The notes under the pieces: generated by a model
The model's input: the letters and a program-made list of their open reading frames with translations, nothing else
What the model was told of the DNA's origin: nothing
The model's database searches: none
Made by a program: the position numbers and the translations under genes
Assembly (NCBI GenBank): GCA_951406725.2
Contig: OX597839.1
Span: 13,888,001 to 13,952,000, forward strand
Direction: 5' to 3'
Length of the DNA stretch: 64,000 nucleotides
Source: Octopus vulgaris
Lineage: Eukaryota
In this document: positions 1,301 through 56,529 of the stretch, one piece after another
How positions within the stretch are numbered: the first letter of the stretch is position 1
Layout of the letters: each line of letters opens with the position of its first letter

Positions 1301-1317
1301 ATGTATATATATATATA

Positions 1318-32148: not shown

Positions 32149-32215
<67 letters not shown>

Positions 32216-35300: not shown

Positions 35301-35749
35301 TCCAAGTTAGCGTTCCAATCCCCTACTAACAGTAAAGGTCTAGACGTACCCAGGAAAACCTCTAGACGTCTGAAGAAATCCGCCCGACCCGTTAAGGACG
35401 GTGCATAAACTGCCATCAGACGGAATGCACACCCATTTCTGCCATCCACGTCGAAGACAACCAGCCTACCCTCCGGGTCTAGGAATATTGCTCTTACTTT
35501 TACCTTTAGACTCTTTCGAAAAAGCACCGCAGTACCTCCACCACCCATGTTCGACAGACAAGGAGAAAAATAAATGTCAAATTGATTGCCAAACATGGAC
35601 TCGAAGGCCCGCGGCTTACTGAGTCTGGTTTCACTGATAGCTACTATATCCACATCCAGTGACTTGATGTCGTTTAGAAGGTAACCTTGCTTCCAAGCCG
35701 ACGCCAAGCCACGCGCATTCACACAACCTAATTTAAGCATACTTGACAT
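32332..35749 (-). pseudogene. Element A ORF2: APE endonuclease, reverse transcriptase and C-terminal Zn finger, frameshifted
   Basis: GCVNARGL, AISETR, VGDWN, SYLDRIL, PGYWKLN, KSPGLDGLP, NFRPITLLN, DQSKAFDRV, VRQGCP and AYADD, split over several ORFs. Confidence 0.93.
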
Positions 35750-35806
35750 TTACGAAAATTGTGTTTTACACACTACATTAGAAGAGACAAGAAGCAAGAA
35801 GGGAGG

Positions 35807-37198
35807 TCACTTACTCATTCTAAAAGTTTCATTTTTTTCTTCTTCTTTTGTATTGTTTTTGATGAGGTGTTTGTATAGTTTTTTCGACAGGTATCGTTGA
35901 TACCCGCCTACCGCATTCGGAAATATTGTTTTCAGTATGTGGTGTTGTGCTTGTGTTATGTGTAAAATTCTGATGTGTTTCGGTGGTGTGGTGTGCGGAT
36001 GATTGTTTGTCTTAAAGTCATCTTCACAGATGACCATGTTGGATGTGATGTAGTCCATTAATTCTTTATTGTCTGTGTCTATTGCAGTTAGTTGTGTGTG
36101 TGGTTTTACGGGTTCATTACTTTTTTGATTGTCTAGGGGGATGTTGTCCTGTGTTAGATATCTCCCTGCTTTACTTCCTTGTTTGGTGGATTTTTTGGAT
36201 ATTTTTCTTTTACCCCCTGTGGCTATTTGCCATTCCGTCGAATTTTCGTCGTCAGACGTATCAGTATGGGGTAGAGGCAAAGCATTTGCATTACTATGTA
36301 TGCTTGTATAAATTGTTGATGTTTTGTGCGGTGTTTGTGTTGTTGTGGTGTTAGGGGTAGCATTTGTCTTCTCGTCACTGTTTTCTGTCTTTTTAATTGT
36401 CGTCCTAGGTGTGGGTGTTGGTCTATTTTTTGTTGATTCAACATGTTTAATTGGTTGTGACGTCAACGGTGATTGTGTTGGTAGTTTCTTTTCTTGGTGA
36501 TGTTGTTGTGGTTTGTTTGCTGGTTTGTTGTTTTTCTTGGCATTGTTCCATAATTGAATGTGTTGGTGTTGGTGTTGGCAACAAAGGGATTTTATTTGTT
36601 TTCTGATTTGTTCTTTCTGTACCAGATCGCACTTGGCAATTAAATGTTCGGGGCTGCCACATTTGTAGCATCTAGGCTTTTTGCCTTCTGCCACAACATA
36701 TAGGCATTGCCCATTTTCTAAGTGGATCTTATCCGGTAGGCTCTCGATAGAGGCCCCCTCAATCTGTATGGTCACCACTATTGTCTTCCCACCCCAAATG
36801 TCGCCAAGGTACACGGCGGTTTCCAAAATGTTGATATTTCTTAAATGGTAACAGATTGCCCCTGTTATCCATTTGTTAGGAATCTCGGGAGGTACATTTT
36901 TAATAGTGATTCGACTCACTCTCTGGTTTTTATAGTATGGGACCATGATGATTTCATCATTTCCCAGAGACTCAGTAGAGTGAGCTTTTGCCACTTCCTG
37001 GTTAGGGAAGCGGACCACTACTGTGTTAAACTGGGGACCCCAGTTTATATATTCTTTTTCTTTCATTATGTTTTTTAAGCATTTTTGTACATCTGTTTTT
37101 GTAATCTGTTCATTTAGTTTTTTGTTTTTCCTTATAATTTTATAAATAATTGTCATATTTTCTATTTCTTGCTTTATGTGTTGAGGTGTATGTAGCAC
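35807..37198 (-). CDS. Element A ORF1 with CCHC zinc knuckle; N-terminus probably in 37297..37683
   Basis: AEGKKPRCYKCGSPEHLIAKC, homologous to the other ORF1s, and directly upstream of ORF2. Confidence 0.8.
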   Translation of the reverse strand: MLHTPQHIKQEIENMTIIYKIIRKNKKLNEQITKTDVQKCLKNIMKEKEYINWGPQFNTVVVRFPNQEVAKAHSTESLGNDEIIMVPYYKNQRVSRITIKNVPPEIPNKWITGAICYHLRNINILETAVYLGDIWGGKTIVVTIQIEGASIESLPDKIHLENGQCLYVVAEGKKPRCYKCGSPEHLIAKCDLVQKEQIRKQIKSLCCQHQHQHIQLWNNAKKNNKPANKPQQHHQEKKLPTQSPLTSQPIKHVESTKNRPTPTPRTTIKKTENSDEKTNATPNTTTTQTPHKTSTIYTSIHSNANALPLPHTDTSDDENSTEWQIATGGKRKISKKSTKQGSKAGRYLTQDNIPLDNQKSNEPVKPHTQLTAIDTDNKELMDYITSNMVICEDDFKTNNHPHTTPPKHIRILHITQAQHHILKTIFPNAVGGYQRYLSKKLYKHLIKNNTKEEEKNETFRMSK

Positions 37199-37869
37199 TA
37201 AATCTTGTCCACGGGTTGTAAAGAGAGCTCTTGTTTCTATGAGCTCTTCATTTGTAAATGTTACAATCTCCTTCTGGCGAAGAGTGTCAGCGAAATTTAC
37301 TGGTGTTGTTTTTTTGTATTAACATCTTCACTATTAGATAGTTCATTTTTATTGTTGTTCTTGTTGTTGCTGTTGTTTTTGTCAATAGTTTTCGTGTGAG
37401 TTTTATTTTTATCATTTCTGTTGGTGGTGGTGGTGGTGGTGGTGGTGGTGGTGGTGGAGGTGGTGGTTGTAGCAGTAGTAGTCTCGTGGTTGCTGTTGTT
37501 AGTGGTGGTGGTGGCGGTGGTGACAGGGCTGTTACCGCACGTGGTTGCAGCGTTTATTTCACCGATATTCATGTTTGCATTTGGCGTGCGTACGTTCTTT
37601 TTTTCTCCTAGTGTTTCCAAACTAGGAAAATGCTGGTCCATAAAGGAACGCGACCAGCGTTCTACAATAAAATTTCTCGACATTTTCTAATGTCGAGAAG
37701 AAAATTACAGAAATGAAATGGGGTTGAAGCGAATTCCTCCCTTGGAAAAGCACTCAAACGAAAGTTGGGTGCCTTACACAACTTATTTACAAAAATGTAC
37801 ACAAAAATTGGGCTATAAATAGTCAAAATAAACGATTACCTTCGGAGCCGAGGTGACAACACGTCAGTC

Positions 37870-37944
<75 letters not shown>
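37870..37944. repeat. (GATA)n microsatellite flanking the element A 5' end
   Basis: Pure GATA run. A degenerate GATA run at about 31921-31996 lies on the other side. Confidence 0.97.
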
Positions 37945-38253
37945 GTGTGTGTGTAGACGCAGGCTCAGCTGTGTGCATAACAAGCCCGATTCCAAAATCT
38001 CATGGTCTTGAGTTCAGTGCCATTGCGCGGCAAATCTCTTTTTCTTTTATTACGGTCCTGGTCCACCAAAAACTTTATGAGTGGATTTAGTGCACGGAAA
38101 CTGAAAGAAGGTCTCCATGGCAGTTCGGCCACATAGAAACCGATTGCATAGAAAAACTAAAAATAAAAAAAAAATAAGTACTGGCACCGATTTGTGAGAT
38201 TAAAGCCGTCAAGGCAGTGTCCCAGTACGGTCGGTCTAATGAGACGATAAAAA

Positions 38254-38342
38254 GTCTTTCAAGGGAAATAACTCTAGCTCTACTATTAAATACTCCTACG
38301 ACGTATTTAATAGTAGAGCTCGAGTTATTTCCCTTGAAAGAC
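38254..38342. repeat. Hairpin inverted repeat with 40-bp arms
   Basis: GTCTTTCAAGGGAAATAACTC...GAGTTATTTCCCTTGAAAGAC. Confidence 0.88.
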
Positions 38343-38961
38343 AAAATTATCGTATCGTTAACAAACTCCATTTCAAATGTATGTTTTTCATTGTGATTCT
38401 TTGTTTCTTTACTAGCCACAAGGACCCAAAATAGAAGGGGACAAACAAGGACAGACAGGACACCACAGAGGGGACAAAATATAAAACGAATATGAATGAG
38501 ATGATTATATAGCAATGAGGTTATGAATGGCTACATGCGCCCCTCATCACGTGCAGTACTATTAATCTTTTTTTTTTTACAGTCCATTTTTATCATGTAC
38601 AAGCAATATCGCCCGGCGTTGCTCAAACCTTTAGAATTGGAATTTTTGAAAAGTAAAAAATTTGCATTATGTAGCTTGTTATTCTCTTTAAGTGAACATT
38701 TTTCTGGTTGAAATACACCGAAAAATGACGACACAGTAATAACAAAATCGTAAAAAATAGGGATTTTCATAGAAAAAAAGCACTTTTTGATGTAAATAAT
38801 TTTTGGTCTTAACATTTGAATTTTTTGAATTTTTTCTTCTACGATTTAAATTTTTTCTTCCACAGAAGGAAGAGCAAGCCTTCTTCTACCATACTCTCAA
38901 TTTTGGTCAACTTGCGCCGCAGGGTTTCGGAGAAGATAGTGTTAGTTGAAGGCTACCAACC

Positions 38962-39697
38962 CTTGATTTTTTATTATCCATAAGGACATACATGGAATGG
39001 ACGATACAATCACGGATGATTTGACATTTAAAGCGCAATTTGGGGTCGATAAAAAAATTTAACATGATTTTATATAAAATAAATGAATAAACAACACAAT
39101 GGACATTTTTTAAACAAATGGAGTGGGGCGGGTTTACGGACCCCACGAACCCCGCCTCTTCACTGACCTCGGTTTTTTGGCTTATCTCGCATCCACGAGA
39201 GACCTTTTATACATGACATTCTTCCATCTTTCATCAAACACTTTCTTACTCAGGCACCTCCTCCCCAGCCTTATTTGTCTCTTTAGGTGGAATATAAAAA
39301 TTTCCACCAAACCAGGAGCAGAGATGAAGTTGTCTGACATCAACCCTCTCATCCTTGTTTTCCATACTACCTGTTTCGCAACTGCAACCACAGAGAAAAA
39401 ACAATTCTTACCTTCTTTCGTTAAGAAATCCGGCGGGTCAATTTTCACTATGGATTCAGACGATAGCTGTCCTCCACCTGACAACAGTTGTTCGGCAAAA
39501 ACCCACATGTCTGACACCTCCGGACACTGCACAGATCGGGGTGTCGTGGCCACTATGCCTTGAGAGTTTATCCCGAACAGGTAAGGCACCTCGGTAACAC
39601 TGCCATGCCAAGGACTTCTGAAAATTATCCAGGGTCGAATGTACCTTAGAACAGTCTGGCCAGCTGATTATCGTCGAAACCTAGGGTCTCCCTTAAT
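38962..39697 (-). mobile_element. F1: 5'-truncated 3' fragment of a B-related Tx1-like LINE
   Basis: Reads ETLGFDDNQLA...NFQKSLAWQC...CPEVSDMW...FHLKRQI, followed by a degenerate tail. Confidence 0.88.
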
Positions 39698-41608
39698 GTT
39701 GTTTTATTATTACCCACTAGGGGCTACATAGATGGGACAATACAATCGGGAAAATGAATAATGAATTATGAAGTTTGTACAATGTGGTGTAATGCCCACT
39801 CGATCCCCGAAATCGAGCGGTTACATTTCGTCATTTGTTTTTTATTCGTCAACAATATTTTCCAAATAAAACATTTTATACATTTTCAACATACATTTCA
39901 AAAATTTTACAAAGTTCAACATTTTTTTTTTTTTTTTCAGGATTTAAAGTTCTTTTTATCATTTCCAAATTAAGTTTTCACAATACCTTTTCTTTTATAT
40001 ATACTCCATTATCTCTACCAAATCTGAGTAAACTTCCATCGTTCGTGGCCACCTTGTAAGTCGGCATTTCATATGTTTTGACACGTTCTTGCCAGCTGCC
40101 TCGATGAACGCCTCGGCGTCGTTCTCGTGGACGAGTGCACCTGTTTCTTTCCATTCGGTGCCCATCCTGACCCACGTATATCCATTTGTTACGTTTATTA
40201 AATCTTCCATCTCCTCACAGTGCCTGTGATGGATCAACGTTCCATAGTATTTGAATTTTCTATTCGTACCTACGTTTTCTCTAGTTTTTCTCTTAGGACT
40301 TACTTCCTCTTTTTTCTCCTCCCTCGGTTTCTCTCTTTCTCTCTTTTTGCTTTCTCTTCTTTCTTTTTCCTTCTCTTGTCTTTTTGGCTCTTTGTCTGCC
40401 GTCTCTCTACCCTGTGCCTTAAGTTCCTTTCCTGTTGTTTCTTTTCCTTTTTGCATACCATCTTTTCCTTTCTCTTGGTTCTGTTCCTTCGCTTGTTCTT
40501 TTCCTGCTTTTTCTCTTTCCTTTAATGTACTTTCCTTTTCTTTCTCTTGCTTCTGCCTTGGCTTCTTCTCCACTACTTCTGCACCCTGTGAATTTTGCTC
40601 CTTTTCTACTATCTTCTTCCCTTTGTTTTCATTTTCCTTCAGTGCGCTGTTACTTCCCTTCTCTTGTTGTTTCTCCGTTATTTCCTTTTCCTTGTTTTCA
40701 CTGTTCTTTCCTTCGTGTTCGTTTTCCTTCTCTCCACTTTGTGTCTCTTTTTGCTCCGCTGTGAATTCATACAGCGGGCATTCCTTTTTTATGTGCCCTC
40801 TTGATCCGCACAGGTAGCAATTCGGTTTTCTGCCTTCCACTATTACACTAATTGTTTTCTCGTTTTCTATTTCTATTTGGAAGGGAAATCTTTCGATGTC
40901 TTCTATTGTGGCCATCAGCCACAACTCTACTCCGAATCCCTTCCAATTTACAACGTTCGTCTCCTTAATTGACCCTATTTCTACTTCCTCTTTTGCTGCC
41001 CCAATAATGGCTGTTACCAGCATTTCTGTTTTAATATTTGGGGGCACCTTTGGGACTCTTACCCGTACCCCTCGTCTTCCTTTATACGTCGGCCACATGG
41101 TGAAATTTTCCGCTTTCAAGACAGTGGAAGCCAATGAGGCCGCCACTTCCTTTGTTGCGCATCTCACCTCCACCGTACCATATTTCTTTCCTCTGTCTAC
41201 AAAAGTCGCTTTTTTCATGATGTCCCCCAGACATTTCTCTATTTCTTCAATCGTCACTCTCACCAGTTTTCTCGTGTTTCTATCTTGCGTTCTATACGTT
41301 ATCGTCTTGTTATTTTTCTCTTCTATTGTTTCCACAGGCGGGACCAGCTTTACGCTGTCACCCTCCCTTTTGACGAACTTCTCGTATTCCTTCAATTGTT
41401 CTTTTCTAAAGAACACTTCTTTTATTCTAAGAGACTCGTCACTTTTTGTTGTGGCGACCCCCGCGTAAGTCTCCATGACTTGAGGGTCGACACACCTTCT
41501 ATAAAAGGTTCAAACACGCAGCGGCAAACGCCTCGCGCGATTAAATTTTTTGATAATTTTTAACAGTTTTTTTTCCAATTTTCACATACAAAATAACTCA
41601 CAACACAC
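39698..41608 (-). mobile_element. Element C: ORF1-only half-LINE
   Basis: Short 5' UTR, intact 493-aa ORF1, and a 3' UTR of about 300 bp ending in the B-type tail GCCCCTAGTGGGTAATAATAAAACAAC. No EN or RT. Confidence 0.85.
39995..41476 (-). CDS. ORF1-like nucleic-acid-binding protein (element C)
   Basis: RGKKYGTVEVRC, IVEGRKPNCYLCGSRGHIKKEC and a K/E-rich linker. The ORF is intact. Confidence 0.85.
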   Translation of the reverse strand: METYAGVATTKSDESLRIKEVFFRKEQLKEYEKFVKREGDSVKLVPPVETIEEKNNKTITYRTQDRNTRKLVRVTIEEIEKCLGDIMKKATFVDRGKKYGTVEVRCATKEVAASLASTVLKAENFTMWPTYKGRRGVRVRVPKVPPNIKTEMLVTAIIGAAKEEVEIGSIKETNVVNWKGFGVELWLMATIEDIERFPFQIEIENEKTISVIVEGRKPNCYLCGSRGHIKKECPLYEFTAEQKETQSGEKENEHEGKNSENKEKEITEKQQEKGSNSALKENENKGKKIVEKEQNSQGAEVVEKKPRQKQEKEKESTLKEREKAGKEQAKEQNQEKGKDGMQKGKETTGKELKAQGRETADKEPKRQEKEKERRESKKREREKPREEKKEEVSPKRKTRENVGTNRKFKYYGTLIHHRHCEEMEDLINVTNGYTWVRMGTEWKETGALVHENDAEAFIEAAGKNVSKHMKCRLTRWPRTMEVYSDLVEIMEYI

Positions 41609-43359
41609 GTGGGTAGATTTCTATTTCTTTATTACCCACCAGGGGGCGACACAGACATGGGGACATAGAACATTATAATTTAAAATTTATGAAAAATGAA
41701 TTGTTAAGTGAAAGAAAATGATAGTATGAAAGCGATACCAACGGCCCCATCCGTTAGCATCACTTACCTGTCCTTTGTTTTTCATAGTCACTTGAATGTT
41801 CTTTGCCAATACGAATAAATTCCATATCCATTCTTACTCCGAAATACTCATCCATATTTTCCACGAATTCATCGCTCATTCTTATATCTTTCACCTCCCA
41901 ATTGTCCCTTTCACACCTCACCATAAACTCACCTATGTTCTTCTTTTCAATCACAGCATACCTAGTCTCACCAACATCATACCATTTATACTCTTCCATT
42001 AGACTTTTAACTTCTTTCTGTTCAGTCATAGTACAAATGTACGGCCTGATATCGATTTCAATCTCTTGTGTGTGTGTATTCTTTTTTTTCTTTTGTTTTC
42101 TTGTTGGGTGGGAGCGGGTGGGTTCAATGTCTGCATGGATAGGGTGGGACTCAGAGGGCGTGGGTGGTTTTGGGGTAGATTGGTGTTCCATATTATTTTC
42201 TTTTCCACGTATTCTTCTCTTCCTCTTATTTCCAGCTTCCTTCCATTTCTGTGTATTCTCTTCCTCTTCTACTGTCTCCTTCTCCTCTGGTTTCTGCTTC
42301 TCTCTCTCTGGTTCGGAATCCATTTCTTTCCCTGGGGGAGGGCAGAAGGCTCTTATGTGACCCCTCAGGCCACACTTGTAACAACGTGGAGCCCTGCCCT
42401 CCACCCACACTCTCATGATCACGTCTCCCAATCTGATGCTTTCCGCCAGGTCCAACAGTACCTCGTTCTCCGCCTGTACGTTCAGCTCCACTGTTACGCC
42501 TCTCCAGCCCTCGGACTTAACCGAGGCATGGAGAATATCCACTTCGTCCTCGTGGCCGCTGATCACAGCCGCCACAATCCATTCTGCCTCCACGTTTGGT
42601 GGCACTCCCTCCACCCTTATTCGTGTAATCCTCCTGTTTAAATACGTAGGTAACAGTGTTACCTTTTCTGACTTCACCGCCTTCGCCGCCATCTTCCTCG
42701 CTGCAGACTCAGTTTTGAAATGCACAACTACGGTTCCGTACTTGGATCCTCGAGTCAGAAAATTAATTTCCTCCTCAGTTCTTCGCAGGGCTTCCTCTAT
42801 CCATTCCATGGTTACAACTTCTACCCTCTTCCTTTCGTTTGCGAACACCCTGTAAATAATGGTCCTCTTATCATACCATTCTTTTCTCCTGGGTTTTCGG
42901 TGATAGTTCCACCTCACCGCTTTCCTTTTTCATGTATTTCTGGTAACTTGGCAACTTGGCTATGTCGACCCCTTTCTCTTCCGCCTTCTTGCTTACACCG
43001 GCATAGGTATAACTCAGCTTCTCTTCCAATTTCCTTCCTGCCATTTCTAGCTCCTTCTCAGACGTAGACAAGTCTGATAAAGACTCGAAAACTCCAGCCT
43101 TTTCCTCCATCAGCTTCACTGCAATTGCCTGTTCCAGTTCCTCATCCGTCGTGGACAAGTCTGTTAGAGACTCATAGTCCATTTCCTTCTGTCTGACAGA
43201 CCGAAAACGGCCGCCAAAACAGAAAAAGTGTAACGCGCTGAACGAGCGAAACGCGAAACCGCGTCAACGCCGTTCAGAATTTCCACAACAACAACAACGC
43301 TTTCTGTTCTTTTTTACCGAATTTTACGAGCGTAAAAAAACACGACCGAACTCAAACAC
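41609..43359 (-). mobile_element. Element D copy 1: full-length ORF1-only half-LINE (one frameshift near 42900)
   Basis: ORFs 42871..43182 and 41760..42917. 5' end GTGTTTGAGTTCGG; tail GGTGGGTAATAAAGAAATAGAAATCTACCCAC. Confidence 0.87.
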
Positions 43360-43691
43360 GTGGGTAGATTTCTATTTCTTTATTACCCACCAGGGGGCGA
43401 CACAGAGGGGGACACCACAAGACATGGGGACATAGAACATTATAATTAAAATTTATGAAAAATGAATTGTTAAGTGAAAGAAAATGATAGTATGAAAGCG
43501 ATACCATCCGTTACCATCACTTACCTGTCCTTTGTTTTTCATAGTCACTTGAATGTTCTTTGCCAATACGAATAAATTCCATATCCATTCTTACTCCGAA
43601 ATACTCATCCATATTTTCCACGAATTCATCGCTCATTCTTATATCTTTCACCTCCCAATTCTCCCTTTCACAACTCACCATAAACTCACCT
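43360..43691 (-). mobile_element. Element D copy 2 (5'-truncated)
   Basis: Last 330 bp or so of D with a complete tail. Confidence 0.88.
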
Positions 43692-43695
43692 ACAC

Positions 43696-44217
43696 GTGGG
43701 TAGATTTCTATTTCTTTATTACCCACCAGGGGGCGACACAGAGGGGGACACCACAAGACATGGGGACATAGAACATTATAATTAAAATTTATGAAAAATG
43801 AATTGTTAAGTGAAAGAAAATGATAGTATGAAAGCGATACCAACGGCCCCATCCGTTAGCATCACTTACCTGTCCTTTGTTTTTCATAGTCACTTGAATG
43901 TTCTTTGCCAATACGAATAAATTCCATATCCATTCTTACTCCGAAATACTCATCCATATTTTCCACGAATTCATCGCTCATTCTTATATCTTTCACCTCC
44001 CAATTGTCCCTTTCACACCTCACCATAAACTCACCTATGTTCTTCTTTTCAATCACAGCATACCTAGTCTCACCAACATCATACCATTTATACTCTTCCA
44101 TTAGACTTTTAACTTCTTTCTGTTCAGTCATAGTACGGCCTGATATCGATTTCAATCTCTTGTGTGTGTGTATTCTTTTTTTTCTTTTGTTTTCTTGTTG
44201 GGTGGGAACGGGTGGGT
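43696..44217 (-). mobile_element. Element D copy 3 (5'-truncated)
   Basis: Last 520 bp or so of D with a complete tail and an 8-bp deletion between GTAC repeats. Confidence 0.88.
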
Positions 44218-45011
44218 GGAGGGCAGGGCTCCACGTTGTTACAAGTGTGGCCTGAGGGGTCACATAAGAGCCTTCTGCCCTCCCCCAGGGAAAGAAATGG
44301 ATTCCGAACCACAGAAAGAGAAGCAGAAACCAGAGGAGAAGGAGACAGTAGAAGAGGAAGAAAATACACAGAAATGGAAGGAAGCTGGAAATAAGAGGAA
44401 GAGAAGAATACGTGGAAAAGAAAATAATATGGAACTCCAATCCACCCCAAAACCACCCACGCCCTCTGAGTCCCACCCTATCCATGCAGACATTGAACCC
44501 ACCCGCTCCCCCCCAACAAGAAAACAAAAGAAAAAAAAGAATACACACACACAAGGGATTGAAATCGATATCAGGCCGTACATTTGTACTATGACTGAAC
44601 AGAAAGAAGTTAAAAGTCTAATGGAAGAGTATAAATGGTATGATGTTGGTGAGACAAGGTATGCTGTGATTGAAAAGAAGGACATAGGTGAGTTTATGGT
44701 GAGGTGTGAAAGGGAGAATTGGGAGGTGAAAGATATAAGAATGAGCGATGAATTCGTGGAAAATATGGATGAGTATTTCGGAGTAAGAATGGATATGGAA
44801 TTTATTCGTATTGGCAAAGAACATTCAAGTGACTATGAAAAACAAAGGACAGGTAAGTGATGCTAACGGACGGGGCCGTTGGTATCGCTTTCATTTTATC
44901 ATTTTTTCGTTTAACAATTCATTTTCATAAATTTTAATTATAATGTTCTATGTCCCCATGTCTTGTGGTGTCCCCCTCTGTGTCGCCCCCTGGTGGGTAA
45001 TAAAGAAATAG
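44212..45011 (+). mobile_element. Element D copy 4 (5'-truncated, + strand)
   Basis: Runs from WVEGRAPRCYKC to the tail GGTGGGTAATAAAGAAATAG. Confidence 0.88.
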
Positions 45012-45810
45012 ACGATAATCAGCTGGCCAGTCTGTTCCGACGTACGTTCGAGCCGAGGACACTGGACAACTTCCAGAAGTCTCTGGCATGGCAATGCTAC
45101 AGAGGAGCTCTACCTGTTCGGGATAAACTCGCAAGGCACGGTGGCCAAGACAGTCCGATATGTCCAAGATGCGGGCGGGATAGGGAAACCGTCCCGCACG
45201 CTATTGTTCATTGTCCGGACGTGTCTGAGGTGTGGGTTTATGCCGAACAGCTGTTGTCAGGTACACGAAGAGTACAGCTGTCGACTGAGTCGATTACAAA
45301 AATTGACCCACCGGATTTCCTCGTGAATGAAGGTAAGTTTCGTTTTCTCGTTGTAGTAGCAATTGCGAAAGAGGTGATATGGAAGACGAGAATGAAAGGT
45401 TTACAGTCAGGCAAGTTCATCTCCGGCCCTGGTTTGATGAAGTATTTCATCTTTCACCTGAAAAGGAAGATAGGGCTGGAGAGAATATGCCTGACTAGGA
45501 GAGTGTATGAAGAACGATGGAAGGATGTAGCACGAAAGTTGCGAGTGAAAGATACAACATAAATGTAATACCAAGCGCAACCAAAAGTATCAGTGGGGAG
45601 GCGGGGCTCGTGGGGTCCGAGCTAAACCCGCACCCACTCCACCCGTAATGTCTTCCGGTCTGTCCCATCATTCGATTTCTGTCCATTTATTGTAATTCAT
45701 GAAAATTTTTAAATCCGATTTATTGTAAAAACCCATTCGTTTGTCTGTCCCCATCATCAGATTGTATTGTCCCATCTATGTTCGCCCCTTGTGGGTAATA
45801 ATAAAACAAC
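45011..45810 (+). mobile_element. F2: 800-bp 3' fragment of LINE B
   Basis: Near-identical to 50224-51023, with scattered SNPs. Confidence 0.92.
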
Positions 45811-46051
45811 ATTAAGGGAGACCCTTGAACACATGGAGGAAATCAATTTTTTGCGTGTATAGTAAGTTATTATATTGTGTATATTTTCTCCATTGTGATC
45901 TACTGTGTGTCTAGCTGTCTTTTTGTGTTGTTGTACAACGATTGAAGTCGGCCTTCGTGCGAGGGCTTAGTGTTGGTGTTCCCCCCTCCGTGGGGGAAAA
46001 ACTATCATTATCTTGGTTGTGCCAAGGGCTTGCTAAAGCCAGTTATCGGAG

Positions 46052-47368
46052 ATGGAATCCCCCATCTCTGATTCACCTGTGACAAGTGATACAGGATCAC
46101 CGGCGGTGTCACCAAAGAAAAGAGAGGCGGGGTCGCCAAAGAAAAAAGATATTCCAGCACCAGCGAGAAAATTTTCTGAAGTAGCTGGGAAGAAAATTAA
46201 AAAAATTAATGTAGACAACCTGGGAAAACATGCGGACTGTGTGTCAAAAGAGGGCACGGAAGTAACCGTGGCTTCAAACGCCCAAATACAGGAGGAAATT
46301 TCGAATAGGAGAATAATCTATAAGACATTCAGTATAACAAGCAGAGCAATCCAAAAAATAGAGGAGAAAAAGATCGAAAACTGCTTAAAGCCAATAATGG
46401 ATAAAATTACGTATATCAATCGAGGGAAGAAATACGGCACAGTGGAGGTGAGATTCACGTCAGAGGAGGTAGCGAAGAAGCTATCCATGGAACCCATAAA
46501 AGCGGAGGATATTGTTCTCCTACCCCTGTATAAAGGCAAGAGAACTTCCAAGATCACAATGAACAACATCCCGCCAGAAGCGGATGCCGAAATCCTAGTG
46601 GCAGCAGTTATGGTAGGCCTGGAGGAAAAAATAAACATCCTCCAGGCCACCGTAGAAGAAGAAGAATTCTGGAAAGGGCAAAAGATAATAATAGCCATAC
46701 AAGCTGAAGTACAAACCCTGGAAGAGATCCCAGAGACTCTAAGGATAAGCGAAGATGAAAGAGTCACAGTCTTCGTAGAGGGCAGAAAGCCGAGGTGCTT
46801 CGGCTGCGGTAAGAAGGGGCATGTAAGGGCGGAATGCCAGCCCCAACCCAAACCGCAGGAAGCAGCTCAGCCAAGTGGAAAAGAAGAAGCCGTGTCATCA
46901 GAAACAGCGCTGGTCGGCCCAGGAGGGACGACTGAAGGTGTGGAGGTGACAGAGGCAGCGGAACCAACGGAGGAGGAAAAAAAGAGCGAGGAAACGAAAA
47001 AGGAGGAGGGGTGGTCAAAAATCACTAGAAAAAAAAGAAAAACTGAAACCACCCCTCCCAAAGTAAACCAAAAAAAAAAAAGGGAGTCATTGAACTCATT
47101 TATGGCCGTTAAGGCCACGAACAATAGACTCGGAAATGTGTTGGCAGCGATGGCCAAAGTAGAAAAAATAGGGAGGAAAAACGACTATGTTTTGTACAGA
47201 ATAGGCCGGAAGGATTACGGACGGATAAAGTCCGAATTTTTCCATGACGTAGGCCCGCTCAGAATGGATATAACATCTCCATATATATTCGAGGGCCTAC
47301 GTCAGACTCCCCCACGAGGCCCAGAAAAAGAGAAGGAAGAAGAAGAAAAAACCGAACCACTGATATAA
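46052..47368 (+). CDS. Element B ORF1 (438 aa, CCHC knuckle)
   Basis: RGKKYGTVEVRF, LLPLYKGKR and FVEGRKPRCFGCGKKGHVRAEC. Confidence 0.88.
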   Translation: MESPISDSPVTSDTGSPAVSPKKREAGSPKKKDIPAPARKFSEVAGKKIKKINVDNLGKHADCVSKEGTEVTVASNAQIQEEISNRRIIYKTFSITSRAIQKIEEKKIENCLKPIMDKITYINRGKKYGTVEVRFTSEEVAKKLSMEPIKAEDIVLLPLYKGKRTSKITMNNIPPEADAEILVAAVMVGLEEKINILQATVEEEEFWKGQKIIIAIQAEVQTLEEIPETLRISEDERVTVFVEGRKPRCFGCGKKGHVRAECQPQPKPQEAAQPSGKEEAVSSETALVGPGGTTEGVEVTEAAEPTEEEKKSEETKKEEGWSKITRKKRKTETTPPKVNQKKKRESLNSFMAVKATNNRLGNVLAAMAKVEKIGRKNDYVLYRIGRKDYGRIKSEFFHDVGPLRMDITSPYIFEGLRQTPPRGPEKEKEEEEKTEPLI

Positions 47369-47377
47369 AGGTAAGTA

Positions 47378-50300
47378 ATGGATTACATTTATGTTGGTTG
47401 TTTAAATGTGCGCGGCCTGGGAGCAGGCTGGAAGCAAGGTCGCTTCCTGCATGATATCAGGTCGCGTAATTTAGATGTTATTGTTGCTACAGAAACCCGG
47501 TTAGAGGGGCCAAGAGGTCTACTCCCGCTGTTTGACGGCTACGAGAGTTTTTTCTCTCCTGGCAGTCCTACAGGCGGGAGTGGGGTGTTGGTCCTATTAA
47601 AAAGAAACCGGGTTTCTGAGAAAAAGTTAATTTTTGCAGATCCAGAAGGTAGGCTGGTCGTCATGGATTTGACGTTCAGTAACGGTAAAGTTATCAGACT
47701 GGTTGCAATTTACGCACCCAACAGTACAGGGCAAAGTGATTATTTTCGTGAACTAGAAAACTTTCTTGGTACTTCGCATTCATTAGTGGTGCTAGGAGAC
47801 TTTAACACAATTTGCAAAGCGGATGTAGATTGTGTTGGCTCGCGTCCAGATAGAAAAGGCAACAGTGGCTTCATGGAACTGCTAAGCCGCTTTGAGCTAG
47901 CAGATCCTTATAGGATGGAATTTCCGAACGCTCCATTGTGGACATGGTCAAACAGCGACGGATCTTCCAGGTCATATCTAGATAGAATACTAATTAGAAA
48001 AGTAGACAGTAAAATAGCTAAGTGTCCACAGTTTTACCCGATCAGCTACAGTGATCATAAAATGGTCACTTGTAAGCTTGACATAGATAAGGTTAAAAAT
48101 AGAGGATCCGGTTACTGGAAACTTAATACGTCCCTTTTGGCGATTAAGGAGTACAAAGACCGGATTAGGAATATAATTCAGAGGGCACTATCTGGTACCA
48201 TCATTAATAACAAATGGTGGTACGCCCTCAAACGAGCCATCAAGTTTGAGTCTATTAGATATAGCATAGGAGTAGTGGCTAGAGAGGCTAGAAGGGAAAC
48301 TATTCTAGTTAAGGAATTAGAGGAAGCCATGAAAACTGGCTCTGCGGCTCAGGTGGCGGCCAAGAGACTGGTGTTAAACCAGCACCTCGAGGCCAAACAC
48401 ATGGGCTGCATTGTCAGGGCTAGAATCCGTCATATGGGATGTGAAGGAATCAACGCCGTGAGATGGGCCCGAGTGGTGGAAGCTCAGCATGGTAACGATG
48501 CCACGATTCGATCTTTGACGAACCAACAAGGTGAGTTGATAAACGAACCCGAGGAGATGTGTGAGGCCTTTCAGGAGCACTTCGCTCAGCTTTTCGGTGA
48601 GTGCGGCGGACTGGATAGAGGAGGAGGGCCTTTACGGACCTACTCGACGGTCTGCCGCGCTTATCGGGGCGAGATGCGGAGGGCTGTGAAGGGCCAATCA
48701 CGCCTGAGGAGGTGGTTGAGGCAATGGCGGACTGCGGCGCGGGCAAGGCGCCGGGTTTGGATGGTCTACCCTATGAGTTATATAAGAGTATGCCAGACTT
48801 GTTCGGGCACCTACTGGCGGAGGTCTACGCGAACTGGCAGCAGAACGGGCTTATACCCAGATCTGTGCGCCGGGGAGTAGTGACTCTCGTCAGAAAGGAC
48901 CCGAGCAAGGGGGAGTGCATTGATGATTTCAGGCCCATCACTCTGCTAAACACAGAGTTGAAGATTTTGGCCAAAGTGTTATCGAAAAGATTGGCGCGTG
49001 TCGCGGATGGTCTGATCGGAGGGGCACAGACATGTGCCGTTCCGGGCAGATCCATTCAGGATAATCTCCATCTAATGTGGTACACTATAGAGGGGTTTAA
49101 TAGTGATTCTGGCAAGGGTGGGGCACTGGTCCATTTAGACCAATCTAAAGCTTTTGATAGGGTCGACCATCGTTACCTGGTATCTGCCCTGGCACAGTTC
49201 GGGCTGAGCCTTGGCTTCCTCAGGTGGATTATCGAAATTTATGATAACATCGACTCGGTAGTTCGGGTGAACGGCTTCTTGTCGAAGCCGTTCAAAATCA
49301 AACGCTCGGTTCGTCAAGGGTGTCCGCTCTCCCCGCTTTTGTACGTGATGGCTCTTGAGCCATTACTGCGAAAACTGAGCGGCATCCCGAGACAGCCAGG
49401 TAATGGAAAATCAGTGTCAGCGTACGCGGATGACATCACCATCATCGTAACCGAAATGGACCACCTATGTAAAGTAGGCAAGGCCATAGAGGTTTACGAG
49501 ACGGTGACAGGAGCAAAAGTGAATCGCGAAAAGTCAGTCGGCTTGCAACTCGGCACCTGGAGAGGCAAGTCGATGCCTCCTGACAGCGTCGTGGGACGTT
49601 GGACGGAGGGTCCGATTAAACTGCTAGGGGTCTGGTTCGGTCCAGACCTCCAAATAGAGAAGAATTGGGGCGAGGTAACGAGCAAGGTGGCTGCAGTAGC
49701 CAAGACCTGGTCTTGGCGGTGGCTATCCCTGAAAGGGAGGGCGGAGGTGGCCAATGTGTTTATCGCATCGGTTATCACCTACCGCCTTTCCGTCGTTCCT
49801 TGCCCTGATTCGTGGTTGATCAAGTTGGAAAGACAGCTCTTCTACTTCTTGTGGAAGGGCGGGAAACCACTTGTGAAACGCTCTACTTGCTGTCAACAAC
49901 CGTTAAAGGGTGGGCTAGGGATGCCTTGGCTGATGATGCGCAGACATGCGCTGAGGTTAAGACATCTGTGGCTCTACCTGGATGGTGAACGGGTGTGGTC
50001 TTCGCTAGCAAAACTGATGTTTCCCAAGTTCACTAGTTTCGGTGGATGGGAAACCTGGCTGAATCGTAGATCGAAACTTGGTACTTGGTACACGGAGTGT
50101 CGCAAGGCTCTCCTGCTATTCCGTCGCTCGGGCAACGCCTGCGGTGGGGGTTCCACCACATTCTTCTATAGAGGGTTGGTAGAGGCGGAATGTGAAGATA
50201 CCTTGGGGGAAACCCTAGGTCTCGACGATAATCAGCTGGCCAGTCTGTTCCGACGTACGTTCAGGCCGAGGACACTGGACAACTTCCAGAAGTCTCTGGC

Positions 50301-50775
50301 ATGGCAATGCTACAGAGGAGCTCTACCTGTTCGGGATAAACTCGCAAGGCACGGTGGCCAAGACAGTCCGATATGTCCAAGATGCGGGCGGGATAGGGAA
50401 ACCGTCCCGCACGCTATTGTTCATTGTCCGGACGTGTCTGAGGTGTGGGTTTATGCCGAACAGCTGTTGTCAGGTACACAAAGAGTACAGCTGTCGACTG
50501 AGTCGATTACAAAAATTGACCCACCGGATTTCCTCGTGAATGAAGGTAAGTTTCGTTTTCTCGTTGTAGTAGCAATCGCGAAAGAGGTGATATGGAAGAC
50601 GAGAATGAAAGGTTTACAGTCAGGCAAGTTCATCTCCGGCCCTGGTTTGATGAATTATTTCATCTTTCACCTGAAAAGGAAGATAGGGCTGGAGAGAATA
50701 TGCCTGACTAGGAGAGCGTATGAAGAACGATGGAAGGATGTAGCACGGAAGTTGCGAATGAAAGTTACAACATAA
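47378..50775 (+). CDS. Element B ORF2: APE endonuclease, RT and Zn finger, with a single frameshift near 48620
   Basis: GCLNVRGL, LGDFN, SYLDRIL, SDHKMV, KAPGLDGLP, DQSKAFDRV, RQGCPLSP, AYADD and CPRC...HAIVHC. The 3398-nt span is one base short of an open frame. Confidence 0.92.
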
Positions 50776-51023
50776 ATGTAATACCAAGTGCAACTAAAAG
50801 TATCAGTGGGGAGGCGGGGCTCGTGGGGTCCGAACTGAACCCGCACCCACTCCATCTGTAATGTCTTCCGGTCTGTCCCATCACTCGATTTCTGTCCATT
50901 TATTGTAATTCATGAAAATTCTTAAACCCGATTTATTGTAAAAACCCATTCGTTTGTCTGACCCCATCATCAGAATGTATCGTCCCATCTGTGTTCGCCC
51001 CTTGTGGGTAATAATAAAACAAC

Positions 51024-52708
51024 GTGTTTGAGTTCGGTCGTGTTTTTTTACGCTCGTAAAATTCGGTAAAAAAGAACAAAAAGCGTTGTTGTTGTTGTGG
51101 AAATTCTGAACGGCGTTGACGCGGTTTCGCGTTTCGCTCGTTCGGCGCGTTACACTTTTTCTGTTTTGACGGCCGTTTTCGGTCTGTCAGACAGAAGGAA
51201 ATGGACTATGAGTCTCTAACAGACTTGTCCACGACGGATGATGAACTGGAACAGGCAATTGCAGTGAAGCTGATGGAGGAAAAGGCTGGAGTTTTCGAGT
51301 CATTATCAGAGTTGTCTACGTCTGAGAAGGAGCTAGAAATGGCAGCAAGGAAATTGGAAGAGAAGCTGAGTTATACCTATGCCGGTGTAACCAAGAAGGC
51401 GGAAGAGAAAGGGGTCGACATAGCCAAGTTGCCAAGTTACCAGAAATACATGAAAAAGGAAAGCGGTGAGGTGGAACTGGCACCGACACCCAGGAGAAAA
51501 GAATGGTATGATAAGAGGACCATTATTTACAGGGTGTTCGCAAACGAAAGGAGGAGGGTGGAAGTTGTAACCATGGAATGGATAGAGGAGGCCCTGCGAA
51601 GAACTGAGGAGGAAGTTAGTTTTCTGACTCGAGGATCCAAGTACGGAACCGTAGTTGTGCATTTCAAAACTGAGTCTGCAGCGAGGAAGATGGCGGCGAA
51701 GGCGGTGAAGTCAGAAAAGGTAACACTGTTACCTACGTATTTAAACAGGAGGATTACACGAATAAGGGTGGAGGGAGTGCCACCAAACGTGGAGGCAGAG
51801 TGGATTGTGGCGGCTGTGATCAGCGGCCACGAGGAGGAAGTAGATATTCTCCATGCCTCGGTTAAGTCCGAGGGCTGGAGAGGCGTAACAGTGGAGCTGA
51901 ACGTGCAGGCGGAGACCGAGGTACTGTTGGACCTGGCGGAAAGCATCAGACTGGGAGACGTGATCATGAGAGTGTGGGTGGAGGGCAGGGCTCCACGTTG
52001 TTACAAGTGTGGCCTGAGGGGTCACATAAGAGCCTTCTGCCCTCCCCCAGGGAAAGAAATGGATTCCGAACCACAGAAAGAGAAGCAGAAACCAGAGGAG
52101 AAGGAGACAGTAGAAGAGGAAGAAAATACACAGAAATGGAAGGAAGCTGGAAATAAGAGGAAGAGAAGAATACGTGGAAAAGAAAATAATATGGAACTCC
52201 AATCCACCCCAAAACCACCCACGCCCTCTGAGTCCCACCCTATCCATGCAGACATTGAACCCACCCGCTCCCCCCCCCCCCAACAAGAAAACAAAAGAAA
52301 AAAAAGAATACACACACACAAGAGATTGAAATCGATATCAGGCCGTACATTTGTACTATGACTGAACAGAAAGAAGTTAAAAGTCTAATGGAAGAGTATA
52401 AATGGTATGATGTTGGTGAGACTAGGTATGCTGTGATTGAAAAGAAGGACATAGGTGAGTTTATGGTGAGGTGTGAAAGGGAGAATTGGGAGGTGAAAGA
52501 TATAAGAATGAGCGATGAATTCGTGGAAAATATGGATGAGTATTTCGGAGTAAGAATGGATATGGAATTTATTCGTATTGGCAAAGAACATTCAAGTGAC
52601 TATGAAAAACAAAGGACAGGTAAGTGATGCTAACGGACGGGGCCGTTGGTATCGCTTTCATTTTATCATTTTTTCGTTTAACAATTCATTTTCATAAATT
52701 TTAATTAT
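51024..52708 (+). mobile_element. Element D copy 5: complete 5' end, poly-C frameshift, terminal tail cut off by the inversion
   Basis: ORFs 51201..52361 and 52358..52627. Starts GTGTTTGAG immediately after the B tail. Confidence 0.88.
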
Positions 52709-53624
52709 TCTTCTCTTCCTCATATTTCCAGCTTCCTTCCATTTCTGTGTATTTTCTTCCTCTTCTACTGTCTCCTTCTCCTCTGGTTTCTGCTTCTCTT
52801 TCTGTGGTTCGGAATCCATTTCTTTCCCTGGGGGAGGGCAGAAGGCTCTTATGTGACCCCTCAGGCCACACTCGTAACAACGTGGAGCCCTGCCCTCCAC
52901 CCACACTCTCATGATCACGTCTCCCAGTCTGATGCTTTCCGCCAGGTCCAACAGTACCTCGGTCTCCGCCTGCACGTTCAGCTCCACTGTTACGCCTCTC
53001 CAGCCCTCGGACTTAACCGAGGCATGGAGAATATCTACTTCCTCCTCGTGGCCGCTGATCACAGCCGCCACAATCCATTCTGCCTCCACGTTTGGTGGCA
53101 CTCCCTCCACCCTTATTCGTGTAATCCTCCTGTTTAAATACGTAGGTAACAGTGTTACCTTTTCTGACTTCACCGCCTTCGCCGCCATCTTCCTCGCTGC
53201 AGACTCAGTTTTGAAATGCACAACTACGGTTCCGTACTTGGATCCTCGAGTCAGAAAACTAACTTCCTCCTCAGTTCTTCGCAGGGCCTCCTCTATCCAT
53301 TCCATGGTTACAACTTCCACCCTCCTCCTTTCGTTTGCGAACACCCTGTAAATAATGGTCCTCTTATCATACCATTCTTTTCTCCTGGGTGTCGGTGCCA
53401 GTTCCACCTCACCGCTTTCCTTTTTCATGTATTTCTGGTAACTTGGCAACTTAGCCATGTCGACCCCTTTCTCTTCCGCCTTCTTGGTTACACCGGCATA
53501 GGTATAACTCAGCTTCTCTTCCAATTTCCTTGCTGCCATTTCTAGCTCCTTCTCAGACGTAGACAACTCTGATAATGACTCGAAAACTCCAGCCTTTTCC
53601 TCCATCAGCTTCACTGCAATTGCC
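52706..53624 (-). mobile_element. Element D copy 6 (internal fragment, inverted)
   Basis: Runs from AIAVKLMEEK to KWKEAGN; differs from copy 5 by SNPs. Confidence 0.85.
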
Positions 53625-55360
53625 CGAATGAAGACGGGACATTACAAGACGGGATACATAGTGGGGTACATAAAGTAAAAATAAAATATGAAATAAAGAT
53701 GAATTATATGTAATGAGATGGAACGGCTTACGAACCCCCAACTCGCAGTTCTGTTTAAAATACAATTTTACATTTTATACTTTTACAATTTACAATTTTA
53801 CATTTTAACATTACATATATTCCAGTTCAAAATACAATTTTACATTTTACAATTACAATGTTACAATTTTAAAATCTCAGTTCTATTGGACGTTGGTCCG
53901 TAATGTACTTTGTCAACTCCATCTGCTCCACCACATTTGGCAAATTCTCATAACATACGTAATACGTTGAATAAACCTGCTCAAACATACTTTTCAATTT
54001 ACAAAATGTTCCTTTATCTACAAGTACCGCTTTCATATCGTCATCATGCAGTTCTATGTGTAATGTAACCCTAATTAATCCCTTCCTACCTGCAAGTCTT
54101 TTCTCCGCTTATGTGTCTTTCACATATAACATGAATACTTTCAGGTATTTTCCTTCAGGTCTTTTTCCTTTTTTACATGCATCCAACTGTTCTCTCACTT
54201 TTTTTCTCCATTCTAAGTGTACCTCTGTCTTTTCGTCCTTTTCTTTGCACGTTCTCTCTTTTTCTTCTGTTGTCTTGCTTTTGGTTTTTTTCTTTTTTAG
54301 AACTTTCGGTGGTGATTCCACCCTTGTTCTCTTCCTATCTCCTGTTCTTTCCTCCTCTGCACTTGCACGTTCTTCTTCCATATCCTCATTTAGCTGCTCC
54401 TCCGTTTGTGCATCCACTGCTTTTGTTTCTTCCTGCACTTCTCCCTCCTCCACACACGTATCTTTACACTCCTTCGTTACCGCCTCCGGTGCTATGGTTT
54501 TCTTCAGCGGGCACACATCCTTCATGTGGCCTCTTAATTTACAATTATAGCAGACTGGGGGTCTTCCCTCTACCACGACTCTAAGCCGTGTCTCATCAGG
54601 AAAGACCAACTCCTCCGGGATGTTGTACAGGTCTCGCACGGTTATATGTGCCAGAACCTGCACCGCATATCCCCACCACTTAACCTCTGTTGACTTCTCC
54701 ACCTTCAACACCTCCACACTTTCCTTGCAGTTAAAAACTACTGCCGCTAATAACCTCTCCATATTAAATTCGGGCGCAATTCTACCAATTCTTATCCTCA
54801 CTGCCCTCCTTCCGCAGTAACTTGGTAGTAAAGTCCAACTTTCCGTTTTCAAAATTCTTGTTGCATTCTTTTTTGCTTCATTCTCATTTTTAAAATGTAC
54901 CACCACTGTGGCATATTTCCTTCCTCTTTTGAAAAATGTGGGTTCACCCTCAATTTCCTTCAGACACTTTTCTACTTCTTCCGTTTCTGCTACTTCAACT
55001 TTTTTCGACGCCACACACCATGTCCTGTACGTTATCATACGCTTCTCCGCGTTGCTTTCTTCCTCCTCGGGCGGTGTGACTCTCACGCAGTCACCCTCCC
55101 TCTTCAAACTGTCGAAATACTTCTCTAGAGTTTTCTGTTCGACCACCACATCTTCCATTTCCAGTTCACTGGCAACTAGGCCTCTGCCTGCTGCTCTCGC
55201 ATAAGTCTGCTCTTGCATTTTCAAAAATCTCCAAAAAAAAAAACTTTTCCACGTCCTCCAACGAACTCGAACTCACAAGCTCTTCACAATGACGCACTCG
55301 AAACAAACACACCACAATAACCAAAAAAAAAGAGGGTGGTGATATTTGCCTCGACTTCAT
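53625..55360 (-). mobile_element. Element E: ORF1-only half-LINE
   Basis: ORF1 followed by a 3' UTR ending TGTAATGTCCCGTCTTCATTCG (compare B/F2 TGTATTGTCCCATCTATGTTCG). No ORF2. The 5' boundary is approximate. Confidence 0.78.
53869..55224 (-). CDS. Element E ORF1 (about 451 codons, one internal TAA at 54109-54111)
   Basis: RGRKYATVVVHF and VVEGRPPVCYNCKLRGHMKDVC. The frame stays open for 79 codons past the TAA. Confidence 0.75.
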
Positions 55361-55462
55361 AATTGTATATATGTATACTCAGTGAAGTTTATTCACTGAG
55401 TATCAAAATAAGAAATATTGAATTTCTAAATCTCTCGTAGAGACATGTACGGTGGTGGGGCG

Positions 55463-55753
55463 ATAGAATGGTTGTATACTGTCAATCTAACAAGAACGTG
55501 ACAGTAGGGGGTACACCACCGTTGTATAGCCCTAGGAGGCATCGAACGTCGATGAAGGACAATGATCCTGAAACACGGTGTCCCTAGATGCAGTTCCGGC
55601 GGCCGGGGGTGTTTGTCTCCCCTTCGTATATGTATATAAGGACACAGGGGAAAATGTGTCGAAGCTATCAGGAGGCGTTCGATGCCTCCTAGGGCTATAC
55701 AATGGTGGTGTACCCCCTACTGTCACGTTCTTGTTAGATTGACAGTATACAAC

Positions 55754-55761
<8 letters not shown>
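55463..55761. repeat. Inverted repeat (86-bp arms) with a hammerhead-like motif in the spacer
   Basis: 55463-55548 pairs with 55676-55761. The spacer reads CGATGA-AGGA-caatga-TCCT-GAAAC-ACGGT-GTC. It abuts (TA)n. Confidence 0.88.
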
Positions 55762-55807
<46 letters not shown>

Positions 55808-56529
55808 TAGCAGAGATACCTGGCGTTGCCCGGTTACATTCAATTGAAGAATTAAACTTTTCTGTTATGTTTTCTGTAATGAACTGGAATATCTGTTTCG
55901 AATTTCATCAAAATTGCAGATGAGTGTTATTTCCCTCTTTACACACCCAAACAAAATTGTAATCATGCCACATGTATCTCATACTACTGATTTTTATGCG
56001 CATATTCCAAAATTCCAGTCTTATTGAACCTGTTAAAAAGATTTTGCTCCTGAAAAATGAAGGCCATGGAGCTCTAAAATGTGAGAGTTAAGGCCCCTAT
56101 TGGAGGTGGGCATCTTAATGTCAACCAGAGAAGTTGAATTGTTGAGAATCTTTTTAACTTGGGTCTTTTATCTATTGTTTGAATTTCTTTGTAATAGGAA
56201 ATATATGTTCCCTGGGTTTGTAAAAGAAAGCAAAGCTACAGGAAACCAAAAGACGAATGATCACAATGAGCAGTCAGCTACCCTACCCTAGTTGTTACCA
56301 CTCCCAATGTAGGATTCTTCACCATCCAGGTGACAGGCACGGCCGTAAGATGCATTACGAATCTATAGCAATTGGAAGGGCGACACCCAACTGAAATCAA
56401 TATTAACAACTGAGTGACGTGAGGGCTAAGGAGAAATATATTAGTACAGGACGTCAAAAAAACGTGAGCAACCTGAGAAACGAGAAGATGGAGAAATAAA
56501 AATGTATTCTCATCTGCACTAGTTTGTTT

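Follow-up and report, generated by a model that had tools for sequence, protein, structure and literature searches.

Protein-coding ORF1-only retroposons that stack at fixed sites in the Octopus vulgaris genome and probably depend on Tx1-type LINEs

A 64,000-nucleotide stretch of the Octopus vulgaris genome (assembly GCA_951406725.2, contig OX597839.1, positions 13,888,001 to 13,952,000; G000:C26:13888001-13952000), hereafter the window, contains an array of retroposons of three families, C, D and E, each with a single open reading frame (ORF) related to ORF1 of a long interspersed nuclear element (LINE), together with a LINE, B, that has both ORF1 and ORF2. Here, we describe this array and follow its members through the 2.8 Gb assembly, in which contigs are cited as C3, C4 and C7 and loci by L numbers. 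On the minus strand, C (39698-41604) consists of a 5′ untranslated region (UTR) of about 130 nt, an ORF1 coding for an intact protein of 493 amino acids (aa; 39995-41476), as a first-pass annotation of the window had reported, and a 3′ UTR of about 297 nt with a B-type tail. Next to it lies F (39119-39683, minus strand), a 3′ fragment of the ORF2 and 3′ UTR of an older Tx1-type LINE about 70% like B, which was the local, non-canonical target of the array. One 16-bp target sequence follows both the tail of C (39684-39699, minus strand) and that of a truncated B (second copy at 45809-45824, plus strand), and the 17-bp head of C (41605-41621, minus strand; also 43356-43372 and 43692-43708) was duplicated by three successive D insertions, each flanked by the identical 17 bp.

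D was annotated in six copies or fragments of a protein of about 470 aa, and six pieces were found, covering 1-1734, 1-1685, 226-1145, 947-1734, 1232-1734 and 1420-1734 in D coordinates. D1 (41622-43355, minus strand) is full length, with one frameshift in its ORF (43182-41760); D2 (43373-43691, minus strand) is 5′-truncated with an intact tail; D3 (43709-44217, minus strand) is a 3′ part of D that reaches the presumed left breakpoint of an inversion; D4 (44212-45011, plus strand), within the inverted block, is a 3′ half with an intact tail; D5 (51024-52708, plus strand) has a complete 5′ end and an ORF (51201-52627) with a frameshift in a run of C, its last ~50 nt having been lost at the right inversion breakpoint; and D6 (52706-53624, minus strand) is an internal fragment joined to the tail of E by a short microhomology. 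The description of D copies as 5′-truncated with intact 3′ ends therefore applies to three of the six, the others being one full-length copy, one 5′-complete copy without its last ~50 nt and one internal fragment. Between D4 and D5 lie the 5′-truncated B copy (45011-45808, plus strand, 97% to B) and the full-length B (45825-51023, plus strand), with an 18-nt head that matches the canonical host site (45825-45842), ORF1 (46052-47368), an ORF2 with one frameshift that codes for endonuclease (EN), reverse transcriptase (RT) and zf-RVT domains (47378-50775), and a tail (50973-51023). E (53625-55336, minus strand) lacks its last ~25 nt, and its ORF (55218-53869) has 449 codons, about the 451 first estimated, with an in-frame stop at codon 370. 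Although E had been drawn to 55360, it starts at 55336, and 55337-55360 belongs to its host repeat (55337-55761, minus strand), a partly inverted ~365-bp unit with a type-I hammerhead-like motif, resembling a Penelope pseudo-long terminal repeat or a retrozyme; the 5′ target duplication of E is at 55337-55346.

Inverting 44212-52708 aligns all units head to tail, so the mixed orientations are best explained by a single head-to-tail array that suffered an internal inversion with breakpoints inside D copies. Twin priming at the D3/D4 junction was ruled out, as both pieces contain the 3′ end.

None of the C, D and E elements of the window codes for EN or RT, in agreement with the initial description. 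The zinc knuckle was the sole Pfam domain of C, of D, of E and of ORF1 in B and in LINE A, which lies further upstream in the window; in the ORF2 of B, Pfam identified EN, RT and zf-RVT. The ORF1 cores align with 19 invariant columns, and this alignment contains the motifs said to be common to C, D, E and B, and the cores of C, D and E are 35-37% identical to that of B ORF1. An AlphaFold model of the C core (predicted local distance difference test score, pLDDT, 94) matches proteins with tandem RNA-recognition motifs (RRMs), and the core of this ORF1 type, including the 493-aa C protein, is therefore predicted to hold two RRMs and one CCHC zinc knuckle. The closest named proteins to C are O. 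vulgaris entries with 92-98% identity over parts. Both near-full-length D copies of the window carry one frameshift, and intact copies elsewhere in the genome code for 493 aa (C), 471-472 aa (D, 10 of 53 units) and 453-454 aa (E, at least 6 of 35, counting the commonest lengths).

C, D and E are genuine multi-copy ORF1-only families. Our DNA searches scored the best 40 of 662 candidates for C, 23 of 574 for D and 39 of 217 for E, and a further search the best 150 of 12836; each family is represented among the scored candidates by dozens of near-full-length copies, spread over many contigs. Clustering of ORF1 cores gave 53 ORF1-only units of D, 35 of E, 30 of C, 17 of D′, 8 of C′, 5 of C″ and three E-like singles. 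Where at least 1300 nt were available downstream, EN followed none of 139 ORF1-only units (C, C′, C″, D, D′, E) versus 60 of 63 LINE-type units, and 131 of those 139 reached a recognised tail before any EN, the remaining 8 having neither. In long regions, a sample that overlaps the previous one, EN lay within 1.5 kb of 0 of 129 ORF1-only and 30 of 30 LINE-type units. Twenty more divergent C-type loci, hand-picked from the best 150 matches, had no directly linked EN, none of those 150 lay within 2 kb of any of the best 80 of 150 EN matches, and the 16 of them with EN at 2.8-3.6 kb show the spacing expected with an intervening B ORF1. A C, D or E ORF1 that precedes an ORF2 was thus absent from every copy examined, and the ORF1-only claim stands. 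The sister families and older relatives are likewise ORF1-only, among them the related and older family K, with EN at 0 of 20 loci. K copies (L248-L267) have a longer 3′ UTR, one has an E-like tail and some are in tandem.

The copies bear the marks of independent insertion. Clean target-site duplications of 15-19 bp flank C, D, E and C-type copies at unusual sites, on many contigs, and the head of some copies at unusual sites includes 10-20 nt of the canonical site. C, D and E also occur as solo copies with their own duplications and no LINE. The least divergence between copies on different contigs is 0.07% (E′, D) and 0.22% (C′).

C ends in nearly the same tail of about 50 nt as B, as had been noticed at the outset (88% match over 51 nt), D likewise carries the B-type tail, and the E of the window does not. 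B, C, D and a subfamily of E, E′, end in this common tail, and the likeness stops there and does not extend into the rest of the UTR. These four also insert at one position of a ~1.1-kb repeat, which we take to be Helitron-like from features of such elements, a 3′ hairpin followed by CTAG and a 5′ microsatellite, seen by eye at its ends. The repeat gave 2342 candidates, and the exact empty site occurs 209 times. The host repeat of the family in question immediately precedes 10 of 29 C copies, 14 of 22 E copies and 7 of 20 B copies, most of the others adjoining an array member, and one repeat is found in more than 20% of flanks, the level used for target preference in the Tx1 clade (PMC4494074). 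The tail hairpins were no more stable than those of shuffled sequences (z -1.1 to 1.7), which gives no support to a structured tail.

The other copies of E end in a tail of another type, with 21 exact copies, and sit in the ~365-bp repeat (1711 candidates), which lies on both sides in 14 of 22 E copies. E and E′ differ in tail and host, yet their cores cluster together at 88% DNA identity. The hammerhead-like motif of this host was seen by eye and its helices I and II fold; the type-I hammerhead has been described as a 6-bp helix I, a 4-bp helix II and a short helix III in a short tandem unit (PMC4209133), with which we compared the architecture, and hammerheads are described from Penelope repeats (PMC4209133, 10.64898/2026.07.22.740005). 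Rfam gave no hammerhead match at the motif, and no Penelope ORF was found beside 11 copies of the repeat. A second LINE, G, inserts at the position used by E in this repeat and is directly downstream of E in 2 of 22 copies. Shared site and adjacency make G the likely partner of the E copies without a B-type tail.

Tails and hosts gave some further observations. At C3:93.39 Mb (L234) and C3:38.18 Mb (L230), an ORF1-only unit and the LINE of the same array have a common unusual tail variant, which suggests local tail exchange. A dispersed repeat resembling a short interspersed element (SINE), at 21793 and 23806 (plus strand) and 57305 (minus strand) of the window, contains the B/C/D tail motif (82-96% over 24-51 nt); two copies have conserved sequence after it, so a composite SINE may contain the motif internally. 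At L202, L203 and L207, a decayed remnant of a Tx1-type ORF1, about 270 bp long, lies in the Helitron-like host immediately 3′ of the insertion site. There is also a host version without this remnant, and insertion into either version occurs ~12-20 nt past the same upstream motif. Upstream of the same host, L037:585-658 gave a weak Rfam match to Hammerhead_HH9 (33 bits, below the gathering score).

The ORF2 of B codes for an APE endonuclease, an RT and a C-terminal zinc motif, as for the Tx1 clade. B is young, with more than 30 of the best 150 EN matches in open frames of 1128-1134 aa and a B-type ORF1 upstream in all 30 best EN matches. Two B copies that were checked have an open ORF2 of 1131 aa; since such natural copies exist, the repaired ORF2 first proposed for a trans-complementation test is unnecessary. 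In an RT tree, which did not include Jockey, B and G stand beside Xenopus TX1 (branch support 61/95), apart from plant L1 and outside the vertebrate L1 group (100/99). The nearest named RT is Xenopus TX1 and the nearest solved structure is L1 ORF2p, both of which point to the L1/Tx1 group, and B and G are probably of Tx1 type.

The ORF1 phylogeny suggests that the ORF1-only lineages are old. Related proteins occur in Octopus bimaculoides; one of them, P0013, at first wrongly taken as E-like, branches as the sister of the C clade (100/98). B and G contain no nested ORF1-only family. Approximately unbiased (AU) tests, with 38 of 65 alignment rows kept and the LG+G4 model, reject ORF1 clades of C with B (p 0.033), E with B (0.002) and E with G (0.001). 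Support for a single clade of C, E and K is 58/21, and one of C, E, K and D (p 0.24) is neither shown nor rejected.

Selection has acted on ORF1. Among copies with an open core (13 of 30 C, 48 of 53 D and 21 of 35 E), the ratio of nonsynonymous to synonymous substitution rates (dN/dS), proposed in the initial annotation as a check, was far below 1: pairwise values were 0.15 for C, 0.22 for D and 0.17 for E, and those between sister families were 0.10 for C-C′ (dS 1.3) and 0.15 for D-D′ (dS 1.9), with 0.10 also for B and G. Variants common to several copies gave 0.06 (C), 0.15 (D), 0.17 (E), 0.12 (D′) and 0.07 (C″), with upper 95% bounds of 0.14-0.28 for C, D, E and D′, and singleton variants gave 0.42, 0.41, 0.21, 0.36 and 1.17, respectively. 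The low values of the shared variants (0.06-0.17 in C, D and E) reflect selection on the propagating lineages. Such constraint, relaxed in singletons, would be expected of copies that cannot propagate without their own ORF1 and that drift later. In HAL1, a mammalian ORF1-only element compared below, ORF1 is also reportedly under selection on propagating copies.

The units also form mixed head-to-tail arrays of up to 23 units, such as E′x5-D′-C-B and D-D′-D-D′-D′-D-C′x3-B. A 44-kb array at C7:100.087-100.132 Mb (L280-L284) holds 22 C′ units and one LINE B, and its linker changes stepwise along the array. Most arrays are in mid-contig with host repeat on both sides, as at C4:70 Mb of 177 Mb, and not at chromosome ends. 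The linkers between units copy the local variant of the site. At C3:52.20 Mb, a C′ is flanked by a duplication that contains the head of B, from which it follows that C′ entered after B, at the 5′ junction of B. In 13 arrays chosen from C, D and E matches, the order D or E′, then C, then LINE was kept in 16 steps and reversed in 2. The nearest relative is in another array for 19 of 20 D units from multi-D arrays, and inside the own array for 8 of 10 D′, 6 of 9 E and 7 of 19 C′ units. An ORF1-only unit lies directly upstream of 7 of 20 young B copies, to be set beside a raw count of 2342 host candidates, and a preference for occupied sites is only suggested.

Taken together, these results make it very probable that C, D and E are selected, ORF1-only elements that stack at fixed sites and are copied in trans by the EN and RT of Tx1-type LINEs. 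In the mechanism that we propose, the RNA of each element would be packaged by its own ORF1 protein, which could explain why shared variants are mostly synonymous. The B ORF2 protein would then recognise the ~50-nt tail, nick the fixed site and prime reverse transcription there. As the site persists at the 5′ junction it could be reused, later units entering upstream of earlier ones, so that arrays would grow with the LINE usually 3′-most. Old ORF1-only lineages may follow whichever LINE is active by changing tail, and in E two tail types would correspond to two target repeats and, likely, to two partners, B and G. The first-pass annotation had read the elements as Tx1-derived, protein-coding non-autonomous retroposons, and this is supported, as neither an ORF2 behind these ORF1s, nor a lack of independent insertions, nor a dN/dS near 1 was found in the copies examined; the use of ORF2 in trans and the Tx1 label are what we infer. 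That annotation did not notice that the elements are target-specific and stand in head-to-tail arrays, nor the second set of tail, target and partner in E or the closer analogy to HeT-A. A bolder version is possible, though we hold it doubtful: the system would be an interstitial counterpart of HeT-A/TART, in which ORF1-only lineages that predate the O. bimaculoides split swap the ~50-nt tail to that of the active Tx1 LINE, thereby switching target, and in which the ORF1 protein of each element directs it to already occupied sites, in an order fixed by family.

Several results weigh against the main explanation. AU tests leave a clade of D with B standing (p 0.075), and BLAST found no match between the tails of E and G, so that the case for G comes from site and adjacency (2 of 22). 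Constraint is weaker outside the ORF1 core (dN/dS 0.14-0.65, with 0.43-0.65 in the linker and C-terminus), and dN/dS was computed on the subset of copies whose core is open (13 of 30 for C, for instance). Searches scored the best candidates, and a rare ORF2-linked parent may exist. The arrays counted for unit order are not fully independent, and the order has exceptions: B upstream of D and C in the window, C′ upstream of D′ at L221, and two B-C-B arrays. Identical neighbours in long runs of one family, such as the 22 C′ units at C7:100.08 Mb, indicate that local duplication or assembly smoothing also contributes.

The order of units could also arise in cis, if they moved mainly as the 5′ part of read-through transcripts ending in B or were joined in one event by template jumping of the B RT from its own RNA to theirs. 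The LINE is usually 3′-most (16 versus 2), the order D′-C-B recurs at three C4 loci, two of which align over 9.4 kb at 97.9%, and heads with 10-20 nt of donor-site sequence mean that transcripts begin upstream of the unit, all of which would suit this explanation. We nevertheless consider it unlikely, since solo C, D and E copies have their own duplications and no LINE, linkers match the local site variant even at non-canonical sites, a match that could not have come from a donor RNA, and neither a unit nor a tail immediately precedes 11 of 20 young B copies. Transport as passive cargo, through transposition of the Helitron-like host and satellite-like unequal crossing-over, is less probable still. 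It would account for identical neighbours in long runs, and the host already has a captured, decayed ORF1 fragment; yet B ends are near-identical (0-0.6% apart) in host copies 5-12% apart, which argues against such transport, D units have their nearest relatives in other arrays in 19 of 20 cases, copies with duplications occur at unrelated sites, and a dN/dS of 0.06-0.17 is not expected of cargo. Passive spread is thus largely refuted as the main route, but may explain the longest homogeneous runs.

That C, D and E are merely 3′-deleted debris of LINE families with complete, ORF2-bearing members elsewhere seems very improbable to us: only the best candidates were scored and not every copy, but every examined member of several subfamilies, with dS up to 1.3-1.9, is ORF1-only and has a defined tail at a constant distance. 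Least credible of all is that they are domesticated host genes for RNA-binding proteins, like L1TD1, expanded into a family that perhaps restricts LINE B. Such genes would be under purifying selection and would have relatives in O. bimaculoides, as is seen, but the copies are scattered, very young and without introns, many are broken, and they lie inside repeats with duplications at their flanks; their singleton changes are much nearer to neutral than their shared ones.

ORF1-only elements are known from L1, Jockey and CR1, and the octopus families would extend them to a further group, probably Tx1. One source lists three non-autonomous LINEs that encode ORF1, namely HeT-A (Jockey), HAL1 (L1) and Ag-Sponge (CR1) (PMC5786205). 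HAL1 (half-L1) of mammals has ORF1 without ORF2 and depends on an autonomous LINE (PMC5753468, PMC5786205); C, D and E similarly encode only an ORF1 protein, are retroposed with duplications and have a selected ORF1. Unlike HAL1, which derives from the L1 clade, the octopus elements have a partner whose RT falls, with weak support, on the Xenopus TX1 side, their ORF1 has two predicted RRMs and a knuckle and is not of L1 type, their copies are target-specific and arrayed, and the ORF1 of C and that of E do not group with the ORF1 of the partner. Ag-Sponge of Anopheles is likewise an ORF1-encoding non-autonomous LINE, but derived from CR1 (PMC5786205), and its listing mentions neither target specificity nor arrays.

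HeT-A with TART/TAHRE is the closer analogy, as its ORF1-only units stand in mixed head-to-tail arrays with an ORF2-bearing partner, in a system where ORF1p also binds the ORF1p of the partner and directs targeting; however, HeT-A belongs to the Jockey clade and is telomeric, whereas octopus arrays are mostly interstitial, inside repeats, with duplications between units. In a recent study, about 40% of Drosophila telomeric families are ORF1-only, a loss unseen in non-telomeric Jockey elements, and ORF1-only lineages give rise to new ORF1-only families (10.1101/2025.06.09.658640). Targets inside another transposon are described for Xenopus Tx1L in Tx1D and for crocodilian Tx1-Mar with SINEU in Mariner-N4_AMi (PMC4494074). 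There, as in octopus, a LINE and its non-autonomous dependants use one target, but those dependants are non-coding SINEs, the octopus ones encode a selected protein, and the octopus targets are Helitron-like and hammerhead-like repeats. A term search of the text and supplement of a study that counts L1-Tx1 families in O. vulgaris found neither ORF1 nor non-autonomous LINEs mentioned (PMC13282606). Our literature search found no Tx1-derived or cephalopod ORF1-only element, although a Repbase or Dfam entry is possible.

Elsewhere in the window, LINE A (32100-37720, minus strand) is also of Tx1 type but more distant; its ORF2 is broken, and it has a separate tail of a hairpin plus AATAAA. A Penelope-like ORF fragment (171-1347, minus strand) has an RT end and a GIY-YIG-like motif, a broken ORF2 fragment of RTE/CR1-like type lies at 29755-30696 (minus strand), and a near-perfect 120-bp palindrome at 38237-38360, with Rfam microRNA matches below the gathering score, is probably a miniature inverted-repeat transposable element. 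The motif GGTAAGT, resembling a 5′ splice donor, occurs at the ORF1 end of B and D (47370, 52619 and 44852, plus strand; 41762, 43519 and 43864, minus strand), and similar motifs are present in G and K. ARAGORN found no tRNA in the window, and Rfam gave nothing at gathering score in 37000-56500 or at six genomic loci.

This system may bear on what LINE ORF1 does besides packaging RNA. Several ORF1s that are 35-41% alike appear to use one ORF2, tail and target, and each is represented by young intact copies, which would allow ORF1, tail and ORF2 to be exchanged separately in a reporter assay. For annotation, such elements are deposited as uncharacterised octopus protein-coding genes, and a site-specific LINE that carries other RNAs by way of a 50-nt tail would be of interest for targeted insertion. 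The octopus families would add a fourth LINE group to those that have yielded ORF1-only parasites, and they show that HeT-A-like arrays occur away from telomeres.

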